A stretch of 64,000 nucleotides of DNA from Podarcis liolepis (taxonomy: Eukaryota). A program made the translations under genes and the position numbers. This document shows, piece after piece, positions 1,164 to 34,565 of this stretch; within the stretch, counting starts at the first letter, position 1, and every line of letters begins with the position of its first letter. The stretch lies in NCBI GenBank assembly GCA_965112155.1, contig OZ218098.1; one strand, given 5' to 3'. The notes under the pieces are model-generated. The model saw only the letters and a program-made list of their open reading frames with translations. It was not told the DNA's origin and ran no database searches.

Positions 1164-1190
1164 ATGACGGAAAATGACAGGTGCACAACT
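1164..1190 (+). CDS. Galectin-related gene, putative first coding exon (MTENDRCTT)
   Basis: ATG in AACATGA context, in-frame upstream TAA at 1131, GTAAGT donor at 1191 (phase 0), polypyrimidine acceptor at 1096/1100. Confidence 0.6.
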
Positions 1191-4100
1191 GTAAGTATTG
1201 AAAAATCTACTTTCTTGCAAGCCTATTTACCGTATTTGTTGCTCTATAAGACTCACTTTTTCCCTCCTAAAAAGTAAGGGGGAATGTGTGTGCGTCTTAT
1301 GGAGCGAATGCAGGCTGTGCAGCTATCCCAGAAGCCAGAACAGCAAGAGGGATCGCTGCTTTCACTGCACAGCGATCCCTCTTGTTGTTCTGGCATCTGA
1401 AATTCAGATTATTATTTTTCTTGTTTTCCTCTTCCAAAAACTAGTTGCGTCTTATGGTCTGGTGCGTCTTATAGAGCGAAAAATACGGTATTTGTGTAAG
1501 TATGTAAAGAGGAAGAGGCGAATGAGTTTTTATTTAACTTATTCATTTTAATGTTACATCTCTTTGAATCCTGGGGGGAAAAATCAGATATGGATTTGCC
1601 TGCCAGTGCTAATCCCGTAAATGTCTTTGTTTGGCTGCAGCATCCACATTGTTCAGACAGAGTGCTATTAAATGCTTCTGATGCACTGAAATCAGAAGCA
1701 GAAAAAGAGGGCTCATAGAGTGGGAGGCCACACAAACTGAACCAGTCTGTTCCCCTTTGCGAGTACAGCAGCATACATTTCCTCCATACATTTACCATAT
1801 TGTAAATAAGCCAAGCGATTCTCTACCCATTTTAAGTGACTATGTCAGTGAAAGGTGTCAGTCAAGGCTGCAGTTCCTGCCAACCATGAAATTATTAGTT
1901 GTGAGATAACATGATTGTTTTAGATGTTTGAAACTGCTTTAAGTCCATTTTTATTTTTCATTTTTAAAAAATCACTTGCCACCTTGGCAAGAAGGGCAGG
2001 ATATAAATTTAATAATAATAAATTGCCACGGAATGCAGTGAGACTTACTTCTGAGTAAATCAATTGAGAACCAGGCTGCACAAGGAAAGCTACTGCAAAG
2101 TACTTCTGTGGCTGGCATTTTAAGATTAAGATTCTGTAGAAATAACTGGTTAAATTGAAAATGGGAAATGTTTTGCAACTGTGAGGCTTTAACAAACCAA
2201 TGACGGTCATGGAAACTTTTAAAAAATGCATATCAAGTAACCACACCCATCCTTGTGGATGGCAGGGCCAGGAATCAATCTAGATTGAAAGCAGCATGCT
2301 AAAGACAAGCATGAACTATTCCAGACTGAGAAAACACTATATTTTTGTGCTACAAATGGCTTGGTGTTTGTGCAGGCATTGTGGTGCAGTACAGAATCAA
2401 TCTGCAAGGAGCTTTTATTTTTGGAATGAAGCACTTTTCAGGAGCAAATAGATCTAGATTGTTTGTGTACTATGTAGAGAAAAACAAGCACTCAGTTTCC
2501 TTTGATTCTAGAATAAAATGTCATGTGCACAGCTTAAGAGTCATCCAGTACAGTACATTTTTGTACTGGCAGTTCATAATTGCTCTGGGAGGTGTTTGGA
2601 CACACATTTCAAACATTCCAGATTACATTCCATTCTGTGATCAGTGCTTTTTCATTGTCTAGCAAGTATTCATGCGATAGGTCCCCTCACTCCATCTCTC
2701 CAAAGGACTGGAGGGAAAGAGTTGAAAGTTATGCCTGAATACGAGATTAGTGGTTTTGTTCTTGGAGTATTCAAGAAGGTTTCAATGAAGGATTGCTATG
2801 CCTCTAGTGAGCAAGGGATGTGGCATCTTTGACCCTCCAGATGTTGTTGGACTCAAGAGCTCCCATCAGTTGCAGCCAGCATAGCCAATGGTCATTTTAA
2901 TACATCAACATCTGGAGGGCCACAGGTGCATTATCCCTGCTGAGTAGCCATCTCTCTTAAACAGGATTTGGCAGTGGGTATAGGGTGGGAGGAGATTGTA
3001 ATGTTTCAAAAACTGGCAAAGTATTTACAACCAGAGACCATGCTTTAGCATATAAATAAAAAACAATAGTTCTGAAATAAGAGGCATATTGTTATGTGCT
3101 ACCCCAATCTCTGAGTGGTGAGAAATTCCAGGAGTTCCAGTGCTTACCTAGGGTTTGGCTTCCTTGAAATGAAAGTCAGTGGAGACAACACTTTCTTTAG
3201 GATCAGGGGTAGCATTTCCCATTTCATCGCTTGTGTCCTCCCCTGCAGTTTTATCCTCACAAAAGCCCTTTGAGGTAGCTAAGGAAGAGAGAGATGGGTC
3301 ACCTAGTGAGCTTCATAGCATAGGATTTGACTCTGGGGCTGTGTATACACCATACATTTGAAGCACTTTACCTCTCACAGAACCACAATTTCCAGCACCC
3401 TTAATAAACTACAGTTCCTAGATTCTTTGGGGGGAAGTCATGTGCTTTAAATATATGTTGTGTGTACACAGCCACAGGTCTCCATTTCCAGTCTGACATT
3501 GTAAGCATTGTATTACACTGACTGTTCACTACACATTTATTAAGTCTAGAGCAGGGGTCAGCAACCTTTTTCAGCTGTGGGCCGGTCCACTATCCCTCAG
3601 ACCATGTGGTGGGCCAGACTATATTTTGAAAGAAAATATGAATGAATTCCTATGCCCCACAAATAACCCAGAGATGCATTTTAAATAAAAGCACACATTC
3701 TACTCATGTAAAAACACCAGGCAGGCCTCACAAATAACCCGGAGATGCATTTTAAATAAAAGGACACATTCTACTCATGTAAAAACACACTGATTCCCGA
3801 ACCATCTGCAGGCCGGATTGAGAAGGCGATTGGGCTGCATCCATCCCCTGGGCCTTAGTTTGCCTACCCCTGGTCTAGAGTAACCAAAGTGTGAAACGAG
3901 GTTATTCAACCTTTTCGGGCTTGAGGGTACATTTGGAACTGTTGGAGGTACCATAAATATCCATTTGACGGAAGAAAAACAGGTGATGCTCACCCACCCC
4001 CATAACATGCAAAACACCTAGTCCTCCCCGCAAACTCCCCCAAATAAAACCGAGACAAAAAAAGCAGGCAATCTTTCTAAAAGTCAGCTCCCTAACCAAC

Positions 4101-6904
4101 CAAAAGCCCAAAAAACTACTTTAAAAAATTGAGAGGGGTCAGGGCCAAGGGGGCTGTCTGAAAATGATGTAGGGCCCACATTGCGGGCCCCAGGTGTAAA
4201 GAAATGCTTTCATGAGGCAGCGCAATCCTCAGCAAGACCTACGGTCCAAGGTAGCACTCTTGTGTACAGTTATCTGGGTGTAACCCTCAGTGAACTCCAG
4301 TTAAAAGGTTTGAGCTTCACACCCATTTTCCTTTCTCCTGCAGGGTGGCTCTTTGGATGAAAGACTGTAGCTCGGTTGTAGGTAGAGCACTTGCTCTGCA
4401 CGCATAAGGTCCCAGGGTCAAACCCCAGCATCTCCAGAGAGGACTGGGAATGTCCGCTGTCTGAAACCCTGGAGAGCCACTGCCAGTCACATTATTCCAG
4501 TACCGAGCAAGATGAACCAATAGTCTGACTTGGCATAAGGCAGATTTCTATGTTGTTGTTTTTAATGCAGAGCTTAAAAGACAGGTACACCTAGGAAGAA
4601 AACTCCTGTGTACGTATAGTATTAGTAATAGATAAATATGCAGCTTTGTATTTTATTGTACAGATGTCATTTTCAAACACATATTCAGAATTATTGTTTC
4701 CCCCATTAGGTGGAGAAATACGTCGGTGAGATTAAAGGAGGACTAAGGCCAACCATGAAAATCACTATCATGGGGGTAATATGCCCTGCCCCCAAGAGGC
4801 AAGTGTGTCAGCCGGCATTCTAGCAGCTGCTTCATGGATGTATCTGGCGAAAATTGCTCATAGGTGCAGATCTATTGAGAATAGCATTAGCTGGGCAAAA
4901 AGGGAGAGATAGTATCGTCAATATGGAGAACATCAGAGGAGCACTGAACATAATTCACTATTTCTGAGCACTGTAGCTCAGCACAGCATAACTGACCATT
5001 CTTAGCTCACACATCCAGACACTAGTCCCTTCCAATTCTAATCTTCTATGATTCCATAATTAAGTCTCCTGTGAAGCCAAAGTAATCACTCAAAAAGATG
5101 GCTGCCTGCTGGAACTCTGCATGCTTCTTTCAATTCGCCTTCACTGGGGATGGGTAATCCTGCTGACCCATCTCTGCTTCAGTTGTGGCTGGAGCACTGA
5201 ATGATCCTGATTCATCACAGAATTGCCTCTACTGTCACCAAGGCTCCCTATTGCCCCCCCCCCCCGCATGAGCCAGTGCTTGTGCTTCCATCCTTCCCAT
5301 TGGGAGGGCAGGGGAAAGGGGTCGTAATTTTGCTGTATTTGTTTGTTTGACTGGATCATTCCAACACTTCTGATGCAAAGATGGAGGAGAAATAGCTGTT
5401 CCCAGAGGAGGCATTCCCAGAATAATGCCCCATGCACAGAGCCAGCCATACCAGTAGGCAGAAAGCGGGAACCCAACTGTTCCTTCTGTACCCCCCCCCC
5501 CAGCTGTTTTCTTCTGTTGCTGTTTTGTTCTGCCTTGTCCCTCTAATCTGGCCTGCTGCTTTATGTGTACTGCAAGAAGCTATCCCATCACCCCTGGTGC
5601 TGAAGGAAAATTAATCTGCATGTCTGGTCAGCTGTTTAAAATTTGCTTAAGTAGCCACGCACAATGCATCATCGCCTCATATATCTGTGCTGTTTCTTAC
5701 AGAGCACTATGATGATGTCACACTAAAAAGGCAGGCTCTATGTCATTTCTGATGTATGTTTCTGGACAGCTCTCATAATGCTTTTTCAGCGTCTAGGCGA
5801 GTGCAGTTTAGCTACTTTTCTCCAATTGCAGCTGGAGGTAAGCATTTAATGCAGGGTTGGAGAACCTGTGGCCCTCCAGAGAAATTGCTGGGCTCCCACC
5901 AACCCCAGGCTACATGGCCCATGGCGAAGGATGGTGGGAGCTGCAGTAACAGCATTTGGAGGGCCACAGCTTTCACATCCTTAGACTAGGCCATACTTAC
6001 CCTGGAAACAAATATGACATTATAATGCCACAGCATGTGATAAATGAGCTCACTATTATGTTAGATTGTTGAATTGTTACTTATCACATGTTCATTCCTT
6101 CAAGTTTTTCAGTGACTTTGCTCTGTGACCCCATGGATGCCAATCTGGACATTGGGCTGTTGTTTGCAGTCAGCTTTCTTGAGAAATCCATTGTCCGGAA
6201 TTCACGGATTGCTGGGAAATGGGGTAAAGAGGAAAAGACCATTCCCTACTTCCCATTTACAACAGGGGAGTCATTTAAGGTAATTTTACTTGCTAGTATG
6301 GGAGACAGATATATAGACAGAGATATAAACTGCCTAAGACTCGCTGGCCCAGTATTGTCTCCTTTGACTGACAGCAGCTCTCCAAGGCCTCAGGCAGATT
6401 TTCTCTTTCAACTCTTCTGATCATCTAACTATAGGTGCTTGGAACTAAAGTTGTAGTCGTGTTTGTAATAAACATGTCCTCTATTTGCTCCATCTGTATT
6501 TACAGGATCAAAAGGAAGACCATTTATTTATTTATAAAGATATTTCTAGACTGTCAAGTCATAATAAAATATGGTTGCCATTTAAGTACGGTAGATCTTC
6601 CAGTGTAATATTTCCAATTGATTTTCAAAAGCATCTACGCATAATCAAGTCCCATTGAAATCAATAAGCTTTCGACTCATTACTTTGTGGGCGCCCAACT
6701 TTATTGGGATTGCTGTCAGTCTCTGCCCCTGCCACCCATGGATCTCCTTTGTTTTTTCAGATGGAGCTCTTGTGTGAACATCAGCAGATTCGGGTTTTGC
6801 TTGATGGACGTCAGCTCTGCAGTTTCACTCACCGTGTGCAGCCTATGCAAAGGGTGACAGCTTTACAAATCTCCGGAGACATCAAGCTCACCAAAGTGGC
6901 TTGA
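1164..6904 (+). CDS. Galectin-related protein-like (LGALSL/GRP paralog), 4 coding exons, 144 aa
   Basis: Exons 1164-1190, 4710-4798, 6105-6279 and 6761-6904 splice in frame to MTENDRCTT-VEKYVGEIKGGLRPTMKITIMGVICPAPKS-FSVTLLCD...RNSRIAGKWGKEEKTIPYFPFTTGESFK-MELLCEHQQIRVLLDGRQL...QISGDIKLTKVA*. Strong similarity to LGALSL (IKGGMRPG, IPYFPF, EILCEH, GDLQITKL) with matching exon phases. The first exon is the least certain. Confidence 0.85.
1230..1488. mobile_element. Tc1/mariner (pogo/Tigger-like) MITE
   Basis: TIRs CCGTATTTGTTGCTCTATAAGAC / GTCTTATAGAGCGAAAAATACGG flanked by TA; internal inverted repeat at 1330-1399. Confidence 0.8.
2810..2940. mobile_element. Short high-copy palindromic element (CCCTCCAGATGTT...ACTACAACTCCCA...CATCTGGAGGG family)
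   Basis: Related copies at ~5850-5985, 7625-7750, 14150-14280, 33615-33870, 43610-43680, 45105-45240 and 58130-58230; CAGG-type termini suggest hAT MITEs. Confidence 0.6.
3337..3473. mobile_element. Short TIR element (MITE) inserted in a MIR-like SINE; related copy at ~10866-11027
   Basis: TIRs GGCTGTGTATACACCATACATTTGAAGCAC / GTGCTTTAAATATATGTTGTGTGTACACAGCC. Confidence 0.65.
3552..3872. mobile_element. hAT (Charlie-type) non-autonomous transposon
   Basis: TIRs CAGGGGTCAGCAAC / GTTTGCCTACCCCTG; perfect 8-bp TSD GTCTAGAG (3544-3551, 3873-3880); internal ~70-bp tandem duplication. Confidence 0.88.
4355..4553 (+). mobile_element. Squam3-like tRNA-derived SINE
   Basis: TGTAGCTC...GGTAGAGCAC...AAGGTCCCAGGGTCAAACCCC head (A/B boxes); body CTGAAACCCTGGAGAGCCACTGCCAGTC; tail TAAGGCAGATTTCTATG. 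Confidence 0.75.
4710..4798 (+). CDS. Galectin-related gene, CRD exon 1 (89 nt)
   Basis: tag acceptor; VEKYVGEIKGGLRPTMKITIMGVICPAPK; GC donor AG|GCAAGT. Confidence 0.88.
6105..6279 (+). CDS. Galectin-related gene, CRD exon 2
   Basis: aag acceptor; FSVTLLC...WGKEEKTIPYFPF...FK; GTAATT donor. Confidence 0.92.
6761..6904 (+). CDS. Galectin-related gene, last coding exon
   Basis: ttttcag acceptor; MELLCEH...GDIKLTKVA, TGA stop. Confidence 0.92.
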   Translation: MELLCEHQQIRVLLDGRQLCSFTHRVQPMQRVTALQISGDIKLTKVA

Positions 6905-9299
6905 AGAAAAGAATATATAATCCCCTATCTCCCCTTGGTTGGTGAAGAAATGTTCTCCTTATGCCATTGGATATTGTTCCTTACTTTTGCTCTTATGTGT
7001 GCTTCTTGAGATTTTAAATGAAGGCTGAGCTCTATAAATAGCCTTATTATACCTTGATAAGTTGCAGCAATATATTTCAATGTGCATTCTTTTCAAGCTG
7101 CAGCACTTTTGTCTATGGCTGTTTACACATCACCAGCTTAAAACTCAGATTCTTTTTCTCAATTCAGATTGAAGCTGGATTGAGGAGAAACGCATCAAAA
7201 CACAGTATTTAATAAGAAATGACAGGGTAGATTTGAAGCGTAGCTATCATCATGTGTACACTATTTCCTAAACCAGCAATGGGAGGATGTAGAGTTAATG
7301 AGACTATGTACACAGCCTATAATAAGCTACCATATGGTAAAAGGCAGCACATATGTAGTTGTACTTTTTTCTAGCTGTACATCATCTGATCTGAAGCATT
7401 TCTGGTGTGGACAGTCATGCAATGACAACATGAAGAAAACAATGTGGTGAGAAAAAGGAGCATTCCTAATAAATCAGTCCCTATTCCACATCATGTGCAT
7501 GCCCCCAACATAAGGGTGGATCAGACTAGGAAGACAGGACTTTACATGCACCTTTTCCCTAACAGTTGCATTTTAAGAAGCCAATATACAGAATTTATAT
7601 GAATTAGTCTCAAGGTCTCATCAAGCTTTCCTATGTGAAGGGGATGGTGAATGTGGACTATAGCTCTCATCATCCCTGACCATTGGTTATGCTGACTGGG
7701 GCTGAAAGAAACTGGAGTCTCACAACATCTGGAGGGCAACAGATTCCCCATTCTTGCTATGACTTCAGAGAAAACACACAGAATTCTCTGTGGGTGCATT
7801 TGGGATCTGGGCAAATGTTTTGGTATGAAAGGTTGGATGCACAGAAAATAGTAATTTCCAAAACTGAGTGGGAGGGTTTCATATTATAGTGTTTAAAAAT
7901 ATATGCTCAGGCTTGAACCGGCAACCAAACACAGCAACTCTGCACATCATCTTTCCCTCTGGTTGTGACTGTTGAGTTTTATTATATAAAGTTGTTTTCC
8001 ACAAACAACCAAATCCATAGGCCAACTTTATGCTTGTCAGCAAGTCTCTTGTGCTTTTGAAATTATTAACATTTAAAGGCATACCACAAGTGGCTCATCA
8101 CTGTTTATTTTATTTTTTAAAAAACTTTTTTTGCAATTTTACAGCTGCAGAATAAATAAACAAATCGGAAATACAAACAAATCATAGAAAAGATCATACA
8201 AAAAAAATATGGAAGATCATTAAAACATACCCCAAATATCACTTTTAAATATGGTAATTACCTTCTGTGAAACCTCATTGTCAGAGCTTCTTAAGTGTTT
8301 CATGGGACATTTTTACTTAAAAAAGAAAAGAAAATACTATATTTGGCATGCAGTTCAATCTGCAGGAGTTACCCATCTTGAGACATCTAGCCTCATTATC
8401 CTCTACAGAAATTAATTTCCCACAGGTAAAACACAACATAAAAAATATTGGACCTGCCATTTCCCCTTTTCCTCTGCCTTCTGGCAGAAGGTACTTCTGC
8501 TTGTAAGAGGTGAACTGTTCTCAGGAACTCAAACTGGCCAGTGGGCTCTATACATGAACTTTCATATGGTCATACACAAATAGGCCAGCTTAAAAATGTA
8601 TAATATGCTATAAAAAAACAGAACTGAAGCTTAAAACCATCTAAAAGCTGGCAATGAAATTGGGAGGAATTCAGTGTTGCGCTATGATGAACCTTCCGTT
8701 TGTACAAGTATTTCATCTTGACAGGCAGAAAAGTTTCCCCTGCTCTTCTCCCTCTGCATGCTATTCTGGGTGTTCTCTGGACACACACACCCTAGGCAAC
8801 TTCAGGGGGAATGGAAGGAGGAAAGGAGAAAGACCCATTGCACAAGTGGGAATCCTTATGCAGGGCTTCTGCTGATGGGGCTTGTTAGGCGAATCCCATC
8901 CTATATCCTTCTGGGCTGTAAAGGTGAATGGAAACGGATGGCAGAGGTCCAATTCAATTTCCAAGCTTGATGTCCCCATTCTAGGTTTGTCCAATTCTGT
9001 GTCATGTGATTTAGCTTTACTCAGATGAATGTACCTGGTTGAGTATTCAGAATTCCCAGAATGATTCTAGGAAAATGATGCATAAGTATTGTGGACCACA
9101 TACAGGAACTGACTTATGAAAAAATCTGAATGTACAAGTCTTCAGATAGGGAAAGTGTGGTGAAGGCCCGAGTAGATTTGTTGGATGCAGGCTTTCTGTT
9201 TGGCTGAAACAACTCACTTATGCACCTCAAAAACCAACCATTATATTACCCCCAAAGCAATGATCCAAGTCTATGGTTTTGTCCACATAATGCAAATGT

Positions 9300-12400: not shown

Positions 12401-15400
12401 TGTGCCCCCCTCAGTTCTACTCCAGATCCTCCCCCAATGCACTGGAGCAGTTTTCGAGGGTGGGCACGAGCAGAAGAGGAGAGAGAAGTCCCATTGGACA
12501 AGTGGAAGTTTATTGTACAAGCAGATACAACCCATATTATTTAATTTTATAACCCAACTTTCTTCTTTAAAAAGAGCTTAAGAAGACACTAAATACAGCA
12601 TTGCCCAGTCTCCCATTCTCCACTTGCCAACATGATTCAGAAGTCATGGTTACCTGTTTTATTAAAAATCCTTGTTTTAAAATGGTGCCACTCAGTTCAA
12701 TAATGTTAAGATGAATATTTTCTTTGGAGGTGGTTCTCTTCTTATAGTTTTCTGCCTGCAATAAAAATTAAAGATATTGGGGAAATTGGGGGTAGCGGTA
12801 GCAAAACGAGTACAAAATACAGAAGCGTTCCTTTCCTCCTTTAACATGGAACTTTTCATTTCTCAGTCATAGAAATTTCCATCTTCAAAGCAGTTTTTTT
12901 GCCAGACACAATAAACAGCAGGGATGGTCTCAGCACCCAGTATCCTCAGGCAGTTGGCAGGACCCCAATGCTCTTAAAGTGCCCACCGCTACTGATGTCA
13001 CTCCTAGGCAGCTGGCTCACAACCACCCATTGCAGGTCTCAGCACTGCTGCCACCACTCCCAGCAAATAATGCTGCTAGAGAGGCCCAGAGGGCCTTTTG
13101 CTGCCCCCTCACTAATAAACAGGCACAGAAGTGCATAAATTAAGTTTCATTATTGCAGCTACAATGAGCTGTTCCCATATTGCATCCAGATAAACGCCAA
13201 ACTGTTGCTGTTGCACGTCCACACCCAACCCAAAGTCCAACTACAGTATTAGTCAGATATAACTTGGAAAGCATTAGAAAGATTTTGCCCCAGTTATCTT
13301 TTGGCCTGATTTTCATTTGCTGCAAATCTTTCCTATCAGTCTCTCCAATGCGTATGCACACTGTGCCCCCGTTTTTTTTTAGTGTCCTCATGTGCAGAAA
13401 GGAGACTTCCAGAAATCCCATCACTTACAAATGTGTACAGAGCTGTAGAGTCATCCAAAAACTGCTCTGTCAAATCACCATTCCTCATGGCTTCAACACT
13501 GCGGGCTCCCACAGGCTTAATGAAATTTTCGTCCACCAACACAGAGGCCAGGGTGACAGCCTCTAGACGGGAGGCTGCAAAGCTATTGGAAATCAGCCAG
13601 TCAACCAGCACAGAGCCTGAAAAGAATCAAGGCAAAAACAGGTGAGCAAAAACAGCAAACAGCCAGTCAATTCCCAAGGAAGGTAGAGGTTTTTAGTACT
13701 CATCCTCTAATAGAGAAATGAGTCTTAAATTGTAATCTAACCTGACTGAAGAGCAGACATTTGCATGCACATTTTCATAAACTTGGCAGGTAGCACTGTC
13801 TTTCTGGATAACCTCATTCTAGACCAGCCCAAGACACTTTGCAGCCAAAGGGAACCCTTTCAACTGTACAATTCTATGATTCTGTGAAGCGCGCACACAT
13901 ACAATTCACAAATGATACCTAAAATTAGAGGTGTTTGGGCTCTAGACTGTATTTTCCCCTTACATTTTAATCTTGCCTTTCCTTTAAGGAGCATAGTACA
14001 GTGTAGACGGGTCTCCCTCTTTCATTTCATCCTCATCACAGCCCAGGGAGGTAGATTAGGCTGAGACGCCATGATTGGCTCAAAGTCACCCAGTGAACTT
14101 CACGGCCAAGTAGGGAATTGAACCCAAATCCCCTGGTCCTAAAGCAATTGAGGAGTAGCCAATGTGGTGCCCTCCAACTGCAGTTGGACCAACTGCAATC
14201 ACCTCTAGACATTTGTTTAGCTGGCTGGGGCTGATAGAAGTTGTAGTTCAACACCATATGAAGGGCACCATGTTAGCTACCCACCCCACACTCCAAACAC
14301 TACCCAAATACTAGGTTTGGAACCAACTCCCACTAATGCGTAAGTACCTCCATCTAATCACCAACATGTGAGGTCTGGCTGTAGCTACTAGTGGGAGAGA
14401 AATCACTGAAGATGTATTGTTCATGTCCCAGGGCTGTGCCCTAATAATGAAAACAAGGTTCTGAAGCTGCACCATGGTGGGCCCTGGGAGAAAACAACAT
14501 TCCTTTGCATCAGATTATATTGAAGTACTAGGAGGCTAATAACATGCGGTTTGCCTACCTGTAAAACTTTCTTTATATGTGCTGCCTTGTTCTGTGTTGG
14601 GTGTGAGCTTAATTCCACTGCTGCTGTCATGCATTTTGTCCACAATGTGACTGGAAAAAAACCAGCAAAAAGGTTAATGTTTAAGAAAACAGAGAATCCG
14701 GTTTTGTGAGGGGACTCAAATCCCTCTGTCTCAATTCATACAGCCAATAAAGAGCACAGTTTCGATTGAAAGTACCTCAGGCATGAGTGGAAGGCAATTC
14801 CAGTTACACACAGGAGAGTACCATTGATTTCTGTCCCTTCAGTCCTCTACCCTTGATTCAATCAAGTAGTGGCGTAGTGGTGGGGGGGCGGCATGGGGCA
14901 ATTGCCCTGGATGCACAATTGGGGGTGGCAGGCGAACCAGGCTGGGGAATGCGGGGGATGATATTCACCCTCCACATGTCCCTCCCCCGCCTGTGAGTGC
15001 CTGCCCGGTGGCGGTGGCAAGGGCCAGATGAGCACACTCTACACCCGCCCCGGGTGCTGGCAAACAGCACTATGCCCTTGCTTGAATGCATCTCATTCTA
15101 TGTTGCTGTCAAGTAAGCTCAGTCTTGGGACTATATTCCAGTGGGGTCCCTCTTTAGATGGTAAGGCGTATTACTTCACTTCAAAATGTGGTAAACCAGC
15201 CTTGCTGCCTTTGGGGGTCCTCCTGGTCATTCTATGAAGTGGGGCTCTGAGCTTCTGCCCCAAAGTCCTGCCCTGATGGCACCCACTGTCCAGAGAGTCC
15301 CCTGAGCCTCAGGTCTATAAAAACATAAGAGCAGCCCTGCAGAATCAGACCAAACGTCAACCTAATCCAGCATTTATTCTCCTGCAGTAGCCAAGCAGAT

Positions 15401-16081
15401 GTCCATGGGGAGCCCACAAACTTCTTCCCCTTAACAACCATGAGTGGTTAGCCCAAACAAACCTTGGCTACAACTTATGGTTTGTCTGAATTGAGACAAA
15501 CCACAATCTTGGATTCAGACATAATGTTAAACTAAACCATGGCTTAGCTTCAGGTAGCACAGCAGCAGAACTGGGGGAGAAGTGAAGCAGCCATGACATT
15601 TGCTATGAGCATGTTCACATTTAGCAACAGTCTGGCTTAGTGTTATATACAAACTGGGCTACACACACCCCACAAATTGCAGGAAAGAAGATGGAAGGAT
15701 TATTTAACACTTACTTCAGGCTGATATTTGAGGGCAGTTTGAAGGAATTTTTCATGCGGTGAAGTTGCTGGACTTGCACTGGGTTGCCAGCATGAATAGC
15801 ACCAGTTATATCCAACGCCCAGGCATCACGCTCTTCTCGAGAGCAGAAATCGAGGAAATACTCTGTGTTTGTTTTTGTCTTCAGTTTAATGACCAACTAC
15901 AAATAAACCCACAAGAAACAACATTACATTATTTGCTAGAAATTATCAGTGCATCACTCAGAAATATTTACTGAAATTTGAGAGATCTTGAACCGCTTTG
16001 CCTTTCTGGTGATAAACAGATGTGATCAAACATTTTCACAGGTAAAACTACATGATAAATCTACCTGTGTTTTATTTATCA

Positions 16082-16121
<40 letters not shown>

Positions 16122-18736
16122 ATCTATCTACCTACCATCTCCTGGAAATTAAGGATAAGTGTGGGTTTCAGGTGTGCTGCTTTGATGTGTGAATACTATA
16201 ATATGTTCAATTTTTTAAAATACAGTATGATAAAGTTGTATATCTATCACTTGCCTTTCCTAGCTAAACTAGAGAAAATGTGTAAGATTTGTGATAGGAT
16301 CTCACAACATTTTTTCAGAAGTAGCCAGTTTCAACACTGCTCTTCACCCCTAGCTAATGGGAGAATGTCCTAGCTAATATGACCCACACATACACGGTAC
16401 CAGCACTGCCCCCTTCTAATATGTTCCATTTTCTAGAGCCAACACAGCAACAGTAATTTATACCAAATGGGAAGAGAATTGGACATACCGGCCTGTTATA
16501 CTCCAAACATGGACAAGTCATTGTGCAGCCATCCAAAATAATCCTGCCCTTTGGAGAAGGCTCTTTCTTTCCTCCCACAACTTTATAATAGAGCAGTCTG
16601 TCCTGGAGAAGAACAAACCACCTTGCTTTCCAGTTGTGGACAACATGTCCCTGCAAACAAAAAGTGTCAATCTTAGGTGCAACTTATAAACAACATTTAT
16701 TACCTGCTTTACTCACTGCACTCAGTTGATAATTTATATAGCCTCTAATGTGCTCTCATCTGGTAGGACTTTAAAACGAGTTCTTACCTTCTTTCCACAA
16801 ATCCAAGGTTTCCCCAGATGTACTTTAGTGATTCCACAAGCGAGCTTTTTGCAACGATAGCACATTTTCCCAGGCAGTCATTATAGGTATATGATCACAA
16901 TAACCTGGTGCCAGTACTGAGTACCCTAGTATCCCCGGGGAAAAGCACTAACTACTATTATACAATGGGAAAGATGCTGATTCACCCCAACTAATGAAAT
17001 AGATTTGTCTCACTCAGATCCAAATTCAGTTTTACAGTCACTAGACATGAGTGGTTCTCAAAAGGTCCTACTCTACCATGCAGCAAGGTAGGGCAGTAGA
17101 TTTTTATTTATTTTTTGCAATAGTTTTTTTTTTGGGGGGGGGGAATCCAATACTTTTTGAAGTGGTGGGCCCTAGCATGGGGGAGGCATCATTTGGTACT
17201 CTGCCTCAGGCAGTGACATGTTTTTGGTGTTCCTCACCTTTAATTTTTACAACAGAGAGGATTCAAACCATACATAGCATGGAGTGGGGTTCTAGCTTTA
17301 AAAACCCTGATTTCAGAAAATGCTCTCAAGTCCCATACAGCAGTTCTCATCTGTTTTTAGTTTACCCAACATATTGCTATCTCAACAACATGACGGGACA
17401 TTTCACTGTTGGAGGCAGTTTGCCTCTGAATATCAGGTGTTGGAAGCACAATGGACAGAGATTGCAGGTTTCCCATAGACATCGTCTGGCAACTGTGAAA
17501 GCAAGATGTTGGACTAGGTGGGCCTTTGGCCTGATCCAGAAGTTCTTTGCTTATCTTCTTCACTCTACCCCCAAGCAGATGGCTCTGTCAGCCAACTGCA
17601 GTACTACGTAGTCTCTGTTCCATTTTCCCTGTTTTCCCTTAGTGGGGCTAATGGAAACCTCTGGGAGCAACTTAGATCAGGGAAAGAGCATGGTGGGGAG
17701 GAGAAAGAATAAATGCCCAATCAAATTAGGAATTCTGTGGCTTCTCTGAAGTAGAGAAAAGAAATTCATTCATTAATTTCCTGCATCATGTGCAATTTGG
17801 CCCTTAGACATGAGCATAGGGAAAGCACATTGGACTGGATAAATTGTTAGAAATTAGGGCCCTTCTGAAGATCTGATAAAGACAATGACAGATTAAGAGA
17901 GGTGGTATATTTCAGATATTGCAAAAGGATAATTTGAATAACTTGGGCTACATTTTGAACCTGGAGCCCTCCTACCATAAATTGAGTGTGCACAATAAAA
18001 GGCAAAAGATCAAGATGAGCAGACAGGTAGAGCAAGAAGAACTAGATTGTTGCTCTGACCTGTTGCACCCTAGGTCAGAAGGGCAGGATATAGGGAGAGC
18101 TGCTTGAAAAGAAGACAAGAATAAAAGATGACAGCAGCGGTGGATCTTGAGGAGATCTGCATGCATGCAAGACAGGACCTGACATTGAATAAGATGCTGC
18201 AGGTCAGAGCAAGAGAGGAATGTTAGCAGAATGTTAGCACAGCACTCTAGAGCAGTATCTAAACCTTATACATCCTTTGCTTAGCTATGGGAGACATTCA
18301 TGTTGGAAAAGTAATAATCTGGCAAAATGTATTTACTTCTGACATTTATAGCTCACTCTCTTTCCCAAACAAGGGCAAACACATTTTTAAAGAGGAGGTT
18401 GCAAGTCTGAAACCACCTAGAGATAAAACTGTGGCTGCACATTACAACCGTGGCTGTGTGTGTGCTCTCCCATTCATTCACTCTGCCTCCGGGACTCTCA
18501 CACCACTGATTTGGGAAGCGGTGTACACATGCCATTAGCCACAATCCATATCTATCTTGTCGTTCCTTATGAAACATTGCTTATTGATGTCCCCCCCCCC
18601 CCAAAACCAGCAAGAGAAGCTGAGAAAAAGAACAAACTAGTTGTGTTTTAAGCTGGTAATGTACACATCGCCTGTGACTGCAGCTTACCTTTTTAACAAG
18701 AAAGCCTTCCTTCAGAATTCCACTCCCTTCCTCCAT
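9300..18736 (-). CDS. PLEK2: Pleckstrin-2 (PH-DEP-PH), 9 exons, 354 aa
   Basis: Exons (minus) 18736-18689, 16650-16489, 15896-15715, 14650-14559, 13616-13429, 12755-12654, 11367-11284, 10377-10299 and 9427-9300 give 1065 nt in frame. Motifs ILKEGFLVKK, GHVVHNWKARWF, LVDWLISNSF (DEP), GHKRKNWKVRRFVL, WIEAIKQLT*. Confidence 0.97.
10299..10377 (-). CDS. PLEK2: PLEK2 exon 8
   Basis: EDNRPVGGFSLRGCLVSALEDNGVPT; GC donor. Confidence 0.93.
11284..11367 (-). CDS. PLEK2: PLEK2 exon 7
   Basis: GHKRKNWKVRRFVLRADPAFLHYYDPTK. Confidence 0.95.
12654..12755 (-). CDS. PLEK2: PLEK2 exon 6
   Basis: AENYKKRTTSKENIHLNIIELSGTILKQGFLIKQ. Confidence 0.95.
13429..13616 (-). CDS. PLEK2: PLEK2 exon 5 (DEP domain)
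   Basis: SVLVDWLISNSFAASRLEAVTLAS...DDSTALYTF. Confidence 0.95.
14020..14140 (-). mobile_element. MIR-like SINE fragment
   Basis: ATCCTCA..CAGCCC..GAGGTAG..AGGCTGAGA...AAGTCACCCAGTGA...GGAATTGAACCC core; similar fragments at ~3245-3336 and ~11480-11600. Confidence 0.55.
14559..14650 (-). CDS. PLEK2: PLEK2 exon 4
   Basis: HIVDKMHDSSSGIKLTPNTEQGSTYKESFT. Confidence 0.93.
15715..15896 (-). CDS. PLEK2: PLEK2 exon 3
   Basis: LVIKLKTKTNTEYFLDFCSREERDAWALDITGAIHAG... Confidence 0.95.
16075..16135. repeat. (TATC)n microsatellite
   Basis: Directly visible tandem ATCT units. Confidence 0.95.
16489..16650 (-). CDS. PLEK2: PLEK2 exon 2
   Basis: GHVVHNWKARWFVLLQDRLLYYK...CPCLEYNRP. Confidence 0.95.
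18689..18736 (-). CDS. PLEK2: PLEK2 exon 1, coding part
   Basis: MEEGSGILKEGFLVKK followed by a GTAAGC donor. Confidence 0.92.

Positions 18737-24433: not shown

Positions 24434-34565
<10,132 letters not shown>

Follow-up and report, generated by a model that had tools for sequence, protein, structure and literature searches.

We analysed a window of 64,000 nucleotides from the lizard Podarcis liolepis (contig OZ218098.1 of GenBank assembly GCA_965112155.1), near the start of which (positions 1164 to 6904) an earlier note, made from the letters alone, had described a galectin-related gene next to PLEK2. The locus very probably holds the wall lizard's ortholog of LGALSL2, which is also called LGALSLA or galectin-related protein 2. 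This gene has four spliced exons, lies in the interval from a ZFYVE26-like gene to PLEK2 and likely encodes a non-lectin adaptor. Exon structure, splicing, residue loss, orthology, gene order and the presence of a separate LGALSL in the same genome were observed directly, together with a fold prediction; what is said of expression in testis and epididymis, of binding to vesicles and of a negative glycan array comes from print and concerns chicken. The gene is already known: it has been named, mapped and given a first characterisation in print, and its protein is in NCBI. Its billing in the earlier note as functionally uncharacterised new biology was overtaken by its naming in 2023 (PMC10343441) and by a chicken study in 2026 (PMC13696195).

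The coding frame runs uninterrupted through four exons (435 nt in total) and yields 144 amino acids and a stop codon. Introns 1 and 3 are of GT-AG type and intron 2 is GC-AG. The parts of the gene are the following:

1164..1190, plus strand: LGALSL2 coding exon 1, 27 nt, with the ATG, 9 codons and a GT donor; joint 1190>4710 in RNA-type contigs
4710..4798, plus strand: LGALSL2 coding exon 2, 89 nt, strands S1-F2, with a GC donor at its end
4799..6104, plus strand: LGALSL2 intron 2, GC-AG; runs X1 and X2 have one contig apiece in which it appears unspliced (contigs 4769-6132)
6105..6279, plus strand: LGALSL2 coding exon 3, 175 nt, S3-F3, of the short type of C-terminal carbohydrate-recognition domains, carrying L58/A60/S62 and N71, W78, E81
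6761..6904, plus strand: LGALSL2 coding exon 4, 144 nt, F3-F1, with the TGA stop; joint 6277>6759 (cut +2, GT..AG)
6905..7547, plus strand: LGALSL2 3' untranslated region; spliced contigs extend to 7146-7547, with AATAAA at 7468, but do not show the 3' end itself

All three joints were present in contigs of the four RNA-type runs, which come from three studies; the label RNA is a guess of the search tool, none of the runs being recorded as RNA, and the data are assembled contigs that carry no expression level. The joint between exons 2 and 3 was read as 4796>6103 with a two-base slide in all four runs, and the loose end of one contig also reads from exon 2 into exon 3. A processed copy was ruled out, as contigs from all three genomic-type runs read through intron 3 without a break and lack the joint. 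Other splice sites were also considered. GT donors near exon 2 (after 4802, 4804 and 4806) were rejected because the RNA-type contigs take the GC site, and an acceptor at 6113 for exon 3 because it breaks the frame. Four AG/GT candidates for a hidden N-terminal exon within intron 1, of the type found in LGALSL (also GRP or HSPC159), did not look GRP-like by eye, and contigs link exon 1 directly to exon 2. Several isoforms recorded for orthologs in the database (e.g. P0036, P0035, P0156) lack exon 2 or carry inserts at the intron 2 junction, irregularities that may reflect a weak or mis-annotated donor. A 5' untranslated region probably precedes exon 1, starting at a possible acceptor near 1097. 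An in-frame stretch at 1140-1163 matches an 8-residue N-terminal extension of gecko, skink, monitor and agamid orthologs; the extension starts with ATG in these lizards and with CTG here, and runs X1 and X2 carry a 1-base insertion in it, so that lacertids seem to initiate at the second ATG. Pieces of high-copy repeats lie in intron 1 at 1228-1493 and 3545-3875. All four listed coding differences in related lizard runs were synonymous (for one contig, six of seven differences are listed), and 31 of the 144 positions are invariant among 36 orthologs ranging from sharks to birds.

The product is identical over 144/144 residues to database protein P0001, recorded as galectin-related protein A-like isoform X1 of a Podarcis wall lizard. 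The gene is therefore already annotated in NCBI, as the earlier note had thought possible. Its naming as LGALSL2, LGALSLA or galectin-related protein 2, its syntenic genes vti1b, zfyve26 and plek2, and its presence in all jawed vertebrates with loss from mammals are given in PMC10343441. The chicken LGALSL2 cloning and quantitative PCR primers (PMC13696195) match the lizard coding sequence at 15/21, 21/22, 16/22 and 19/23 bases and their spacing reproduces the published 183-bp amplicon, while both chicken LGALSL primers match it at just 12/22. A homolog search returned 101 proteins, 89 of them named, from reptiles, birds, amphibians, gar and cartilaginous fish; a profile-free full scan added members from coelacanth, bichir, sturgeon and a teleost. 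Outside the reptiles, orthologs occur in birds and amphibians, in coelacanth, gar, bichir and one teleost, and in sharks and rays. The lizard protein is 72% identical to a galliform ortholog and 72-83% identical to the other-amniote rows. In these protein searches none of the 89 named homologs was mammalian (12 more are unnamed), and the two named mammalian single-domain matches of the wider full scan are LGALSL. The loss in mammals proposed earlier is consistent with these protein searches; the proposed retention in reptiles was too narrow, as the range extends from sharks to birds. A metagenome scan for host DNA gave, from 73 pattern matches, a single locus, which is 38% identical and not an ortholog.

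The whole protein matches the Pfam family Gal-bind_lectin with E 8e-35, and exons 3 and 4 each score above the Pfam galectin cut-off. Together with the frame and the RNA-type joints, this match bears out the 144-residue single-domain galectin proposed from the letters, and the motifs IKGGLRP, IPYFPF, ELLCEH and GDIKLTK were all found where they had been reported. The predicted structure is a galectin beta-sandwich with a predicted local distance difference test score (pLDDT) of 86.9, and its top Foldseek matches are chicken and human GRP, at a root-mean-square deviation of 1.1-1.3 A. No hydrophobic leader or signal peptide was found in the sequence. In classical galectins galactose is gripped by the H-x-N-x-R triad of strand S4. 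These residues are replaced by L58, A60 and S62 in the lizard protein, and in all 36 aligned orthologs H, N and R are each missing from their own S4 position, where L/Q/E/F, T/A/V/R and N/S are found. Outside this strand W78 is kept in 36/36 orthologs, N71 in 35/36 and E81 in 34/36, so that the classical signature H-x-N-x-R...N...W-x-x-E-x-R is matched exactly at 3 of 7 positions (N, W and E), the last R being K. Nine residues distinguish the group formed by LGALSL, LGALSL2 and cyclostome proteins from 27 other domains; six of them (E99, H104, R108, D112, T141 and K142) lie in the F3-F5 and F1 strands or turns.

We consider it probable that LGALSL2 is a non-lectin adaptor, as it has lost the H-x-N-x-R triad, and we infer that it would engage a protein partner through the back (F) face; its location in the cell and its tissue in the lizard are proposed in the same way. 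The missing signal peptide suggests a leaderless or cytosolic protein. In chicken, expression is higher in testis than in epididymis, and the protein binds vesicles of Sertoli cells and of the efferent-duct epithelium (PMC13696195); by analogy the site of action in the lizard would probably be the male reproductive tract. The same gene might instead encode a lectin whose ligand, held in a reshaped groove of the S face, is a glycan of an unusual kind: sulfated, fucosylated or borne on mucin. The retention of W78, N71 and E81 in 34-36 of the 36 orthologs is consistent with such a ligand, but the S4 positions vary freely among the same orthologs, which does not suggest a fixed one. The published chicken data likewise point both ways: the protein stains vesicles rich in carbohydrate, and a few fucosylated probes showed a very weak signal with it, and chicken LGALSL is cited as a binder of a few rare glycans, but no significant binding of LGALSL2 was reported on 672 glycan probes (PMC13696195). 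We regard a glycan ligand as unlikely.

The relationship of LGALSL2 to LGALSL was examined next to the published model of its origin. A separate true LGALSL is present in the lizard genome at C3:2.325-2.334 Mb, with an extra N-terminal exon and a pellino neighbour, and its identity to the LGALSL of owl and of mammals is 89-93%. LGALSL2, which lies on C1, is 38% identical to it over 134 columns and shows neither the high identity nor the N-terminal exon; the lack of the latter had been remarked on in the earlier note. In a 50-row maximum-likelihood tree, a clade supported at 100/100 and set on a long stem unites LGALSL and LGALSL2 with one protein each from lamprey and hagfish, in agreement with the proposed ancient paralog closest to LGALSL. 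The 14 LGALSL2 rows, shark to bird, form a clade of their own (99/96) apart from the 7 LGALSL rows (100/99), and the cyclostome rows sit weakly beside LGALSL (82/46). The rows were chosen from 519 detected domains plus four from the lizard genome and span about 140 columns; galectin-8 is represented by tetrapods only, galectin-3 by a single lizard and by three tandem genes of an unusual kind from fish, and the tree includes no galectin-1/2/12, GRIFIN or invertebrate rows. The characiform fish proteins P0170, P0242, P0190 and P0179 have two or three tandem galectin-3-like domains, are annotated galectin-8-like or galectin-4-like, and group with galectin-3. On these alignments LGALSL2 is probably the sister of LGALSL, both descending from a non-lectin ancestor also carried by cyclostomes and split probably by vertebrate genome duplication. 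The tree is short, with a long stem, thin galectin-3 and galectin-8 sampling and a weak placement of the cyclostomes, and does not single out a round of duplication. The 89-nt phase 0/2 exon, put forward as a pointer to LGALSL, is indeed present but is not diagnostic, since it is common to the galectin-3, galectin-4C and galectin-8C (C-terminal) domains of the same genome; the domain exons measure 89/175/144 nt in LGALSL2, 89/166/150 in galectin-8C and 89/178/144 in LGALSL.

In the model stated in section 3.7 of PMC10343441, LGALSL2 is the genome-duplication sister of the tandem-repeat galectin-8, having lost the N-terminal domain, LGALSL pairs with galectin-3, and the likeness of LGALSL to LGALSL2 is secondary. 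The location of the genes fits this model, with galectin-8 and LGALSL both on C3 and galectin-3 and LGALSL2 both on C1. Actinin-type EF-hand matches flank galectin-8 (C3:78.6 Mb, 0.1 Mb off), galectin-4 (C7:87.9, 0.03 Mb) and LGALSL2 (C1:48.0, 0.73 Mb), with another near a galectin on C16, and pellino matches lie 0.14 Mb from LGALSL (C3:2.47) and 1.2 Mb from galectin-3 (C1:7.29). The sequences argue the other way. With the groups of the 2023 paper, approximately unbiased (AU) tests rejected the pairing of LGALSL2 with galectin-8C (p 0.0006) and that of LGALSL with galectin-3 (p 0.0015). After removal of the columns from the S3-S4 loop to S6 the clade with lamprey and hagfish held, at 99 in the Shimodaira-Hasegawa-like approximate likelihood ratio test (SH-aLRT), and LGALSL2 with galectin-8C was still rejected (p 0.004). 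LGALSL2 and LGALSL share eight diagnostic columns, LGALSL2 and galectin-8C none, and LGALSL and galectin-3 one. Early gene conversion may qualify these tests. The 2023 paper's own tree contains the LGALSL/LGALSL2 clade at 99%, which it terms remarkable (PMC10343441), so that what is new here is only the formal conflict with the published model. We judge that model quite improbable and favour LGALSL as the sister of LGALSL2.

Several points weigh against our reading, both of function and of origin. A binding partner was identified neither here nor in the two LGALSL2 papers, and the retained N71, W78 and E81 leave room for an unusual glycan. The conservation of F over S strands is 0.77 vs 0.72, calculated on whole strands rather than surface residues and weaker than the wording in print, and strand S6 equals F1 in conservation (0.83). 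The lizard runs carry no readable tissue, and their contigs are of guessed RNA status. The neighbouring actinin and pellino genes fit the published origin better than a sister relationship with LGALSL, and the paralog names ZFYVE26, ARG2, actinin and pellino rest on Pfam family and position and not on ortholog alignment. On the side of a genome-duplication pair, a pleckstrin, a pellino and an actinin-type gene are found on C1 and again on C3, but the nearest-neighbour slots differ.

That the gene is the species' only LGALSL, diverged or moved, or a decaying duplicate deserves practically no credence and is refuted by splicing, the separate LGALSL and the tree: its best solved-structure match is LGALSL and its intron 2 donor is non-standard, but a highly conserved LGALSL lies on C3 and the gene itself has an open frame, observed splicing and only silent differences among the four listed. 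Neither of the outcomes that the earlier note had named as fatal to its proposal was found: a separate LGALSL exists, LGALSL2 lies outside the LGALSL clade and spliced contigs are present.

The gene neighbourhood agrees with the identification as LGALSL2. The next gene downstream, as had been proposed, is a pleckstrin gene:

13339..16683, minus strand: PLEK2 (DEP and PH exons), next gene downstream, convergent with LGALSL2; synteny marker

Its DEP exon (13339-13626) matches pleckstrin-2 with E 6e-28 and pleckstrin with 6e-9. Beyond it lie EIF2S1 (minus strand), ATP6V1D (plus strand) and a guanylate-kinase gene (minus strand), which we provisionally take as PALS1/MPP5 from the chicken order; a weak reverse-transcriptase fragment occurs in an EIF2S1 intron (window 31431-31673, minus strand). 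Upstream of LGALSL2, C1 has a FYVE match 28 kb off (48.705 Mb), an arginase (48.60 Mb) and a TMEM229-like match (48.47 Mb); a search for the VTI1B family found nothing on that chromosome. Of the two synteny markers suggested earlier, PLEK2 is adjacent but TMEM229B is not an immediate neighbour, the TMEM229-like match lying farther upstream. The published chicken order is TMEM229B, PLEKHH1, PIGH, ARG2, VTI1B, RDH12, ZFYVE26, LOC423277, PLEK2, EIF2S1, ATP6V1D, MPP5 (PMC6339939; PMC12159700), in which LOC423277, a galectin-related protein-like gene, is LGALSL2 by position, and the lizard order around LGALSL2 agrees with that around LOC423277 (PMC6339939). A CpG-rich patch upstream of the window (G000:C1:48731200-48732000), about 1.2-2 kb ahead of the LGALSL2 ATG, probably represents the promoter of ZFYVE26. 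In chicken only 266 bp separate ZFYVE26 from LOC423277 (PMC6339939), which makes a shared head-to-head ZFYVE26/LGALSL2 promoter possible. On C3, PLEK lies 4 Mb from LGALSL, paralleling PLEK2 beside LGALSL2 and in line with the earlier statement that the LGALSL region carries PLEK.

The same region offers a lead on the mammalian loss. In the lizard, PLEK2 and EIF2S1 share a strand. In human we take them to be convergent, with PLEK2 presumably adjoining TMEM229B and ZFYVE26 adjoining RAD51B. On this human order, the strand change between PLEK2 and EIF2S1 and the shift of ZFYVE26 would imply two mammalian inversion breakpoints at or beside the place of LGALSL2. The gene list of a 1-Mb cattle window includes PLEK2, TMEM229B, ARG2, VTI1B, RDH11 and RDH12 without ZFYVE26 (PMC13491712; an alphabetical list with unnamed LOC entries). 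No unbroken segment of the sauropsid order could yield such a list, and this is a hint of an inversion that had one of its breakpoints where LGALSL2 lies. A fuller account, which we put forward tentatively and at somewhat less than even chances, would make LGALSL and LGALSL2 a true genome-duplication pair whose non-lectin ancestor is older than the lamprey-jawed split, against the published descent from galectin-8, and which share a conserved back-face patch (E99, H104, R108, D112, T141, K142) for one protein partner, LGALSL2 having been lost in mammals at the inversion breakpoint ZFYVE26|PLEK2.

The genome scan also showed that single-domain galectins have expanded in this lizard, with local clusters of galectin middle exons at G000:C9:10.75-10.83 Mb (five) and C7:84.61-84.66 Mb (four). 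Two intronless, stop-free galectin domains, L003 (G000:C16:39.41 Mb) and L004 (G000:C1:9.59 Mb), are probably retrocopies, as L003 is near-identical to an exon in the C9 cluster.

Apart from its disputed family origin, LGALSL2 is an ordinary gene, and this is no gene discovery: the value of the analysis is narrow, since the gene was already named, mapped and studied. Its remaining use is that our sequence tests conflict with the 2023 origin model. The nine shared residues further provide a short, testable list for finding the partner of LGALSL2 and of human LGALSL, and the gene is a possible example of loss at a mammalian rearrangement breakpoint.

Compared with the LGALSL2 of print, the lizard gene is a lacertid ortholog that differs in nothing of substance: it has the ZFYVE26/PLEK2 position, the single C-terminal-type domain, the loss of the S4 sugar residues with the W kept, the long S3-S4 loop, and the shark-to-bird range, with no mammalian match among the named proteins. 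LGALSL (PDB 5it6, 2jj6, 3b9c) is its closest paralog, with the same fold, an S4 triad that is also lost and the nine signature residues in common. It differs in sequence (37-40% identity), in its extra N-terminal exon and in its chromosome; it is kept in mammals, where its W is changed to R (2/2 mammal rows) whereas LGALSL2 keeps W, and it evolves more slowly in amniotes (89-93% against 72-83% for LGALSL2, lizard to other-amniote rows). Classical galectins bind beta-galactosides. Galectin-3 and the C-terminal domains of galectin-4, -8 and -9 share with LGALSL2 the fold, a domain built from three exons of which the first has 89 nt and the middle one is short, and the N, W and E of strands S5-S6, but are only 25-37% identical to it and carry the H-x-N-x-R triad.

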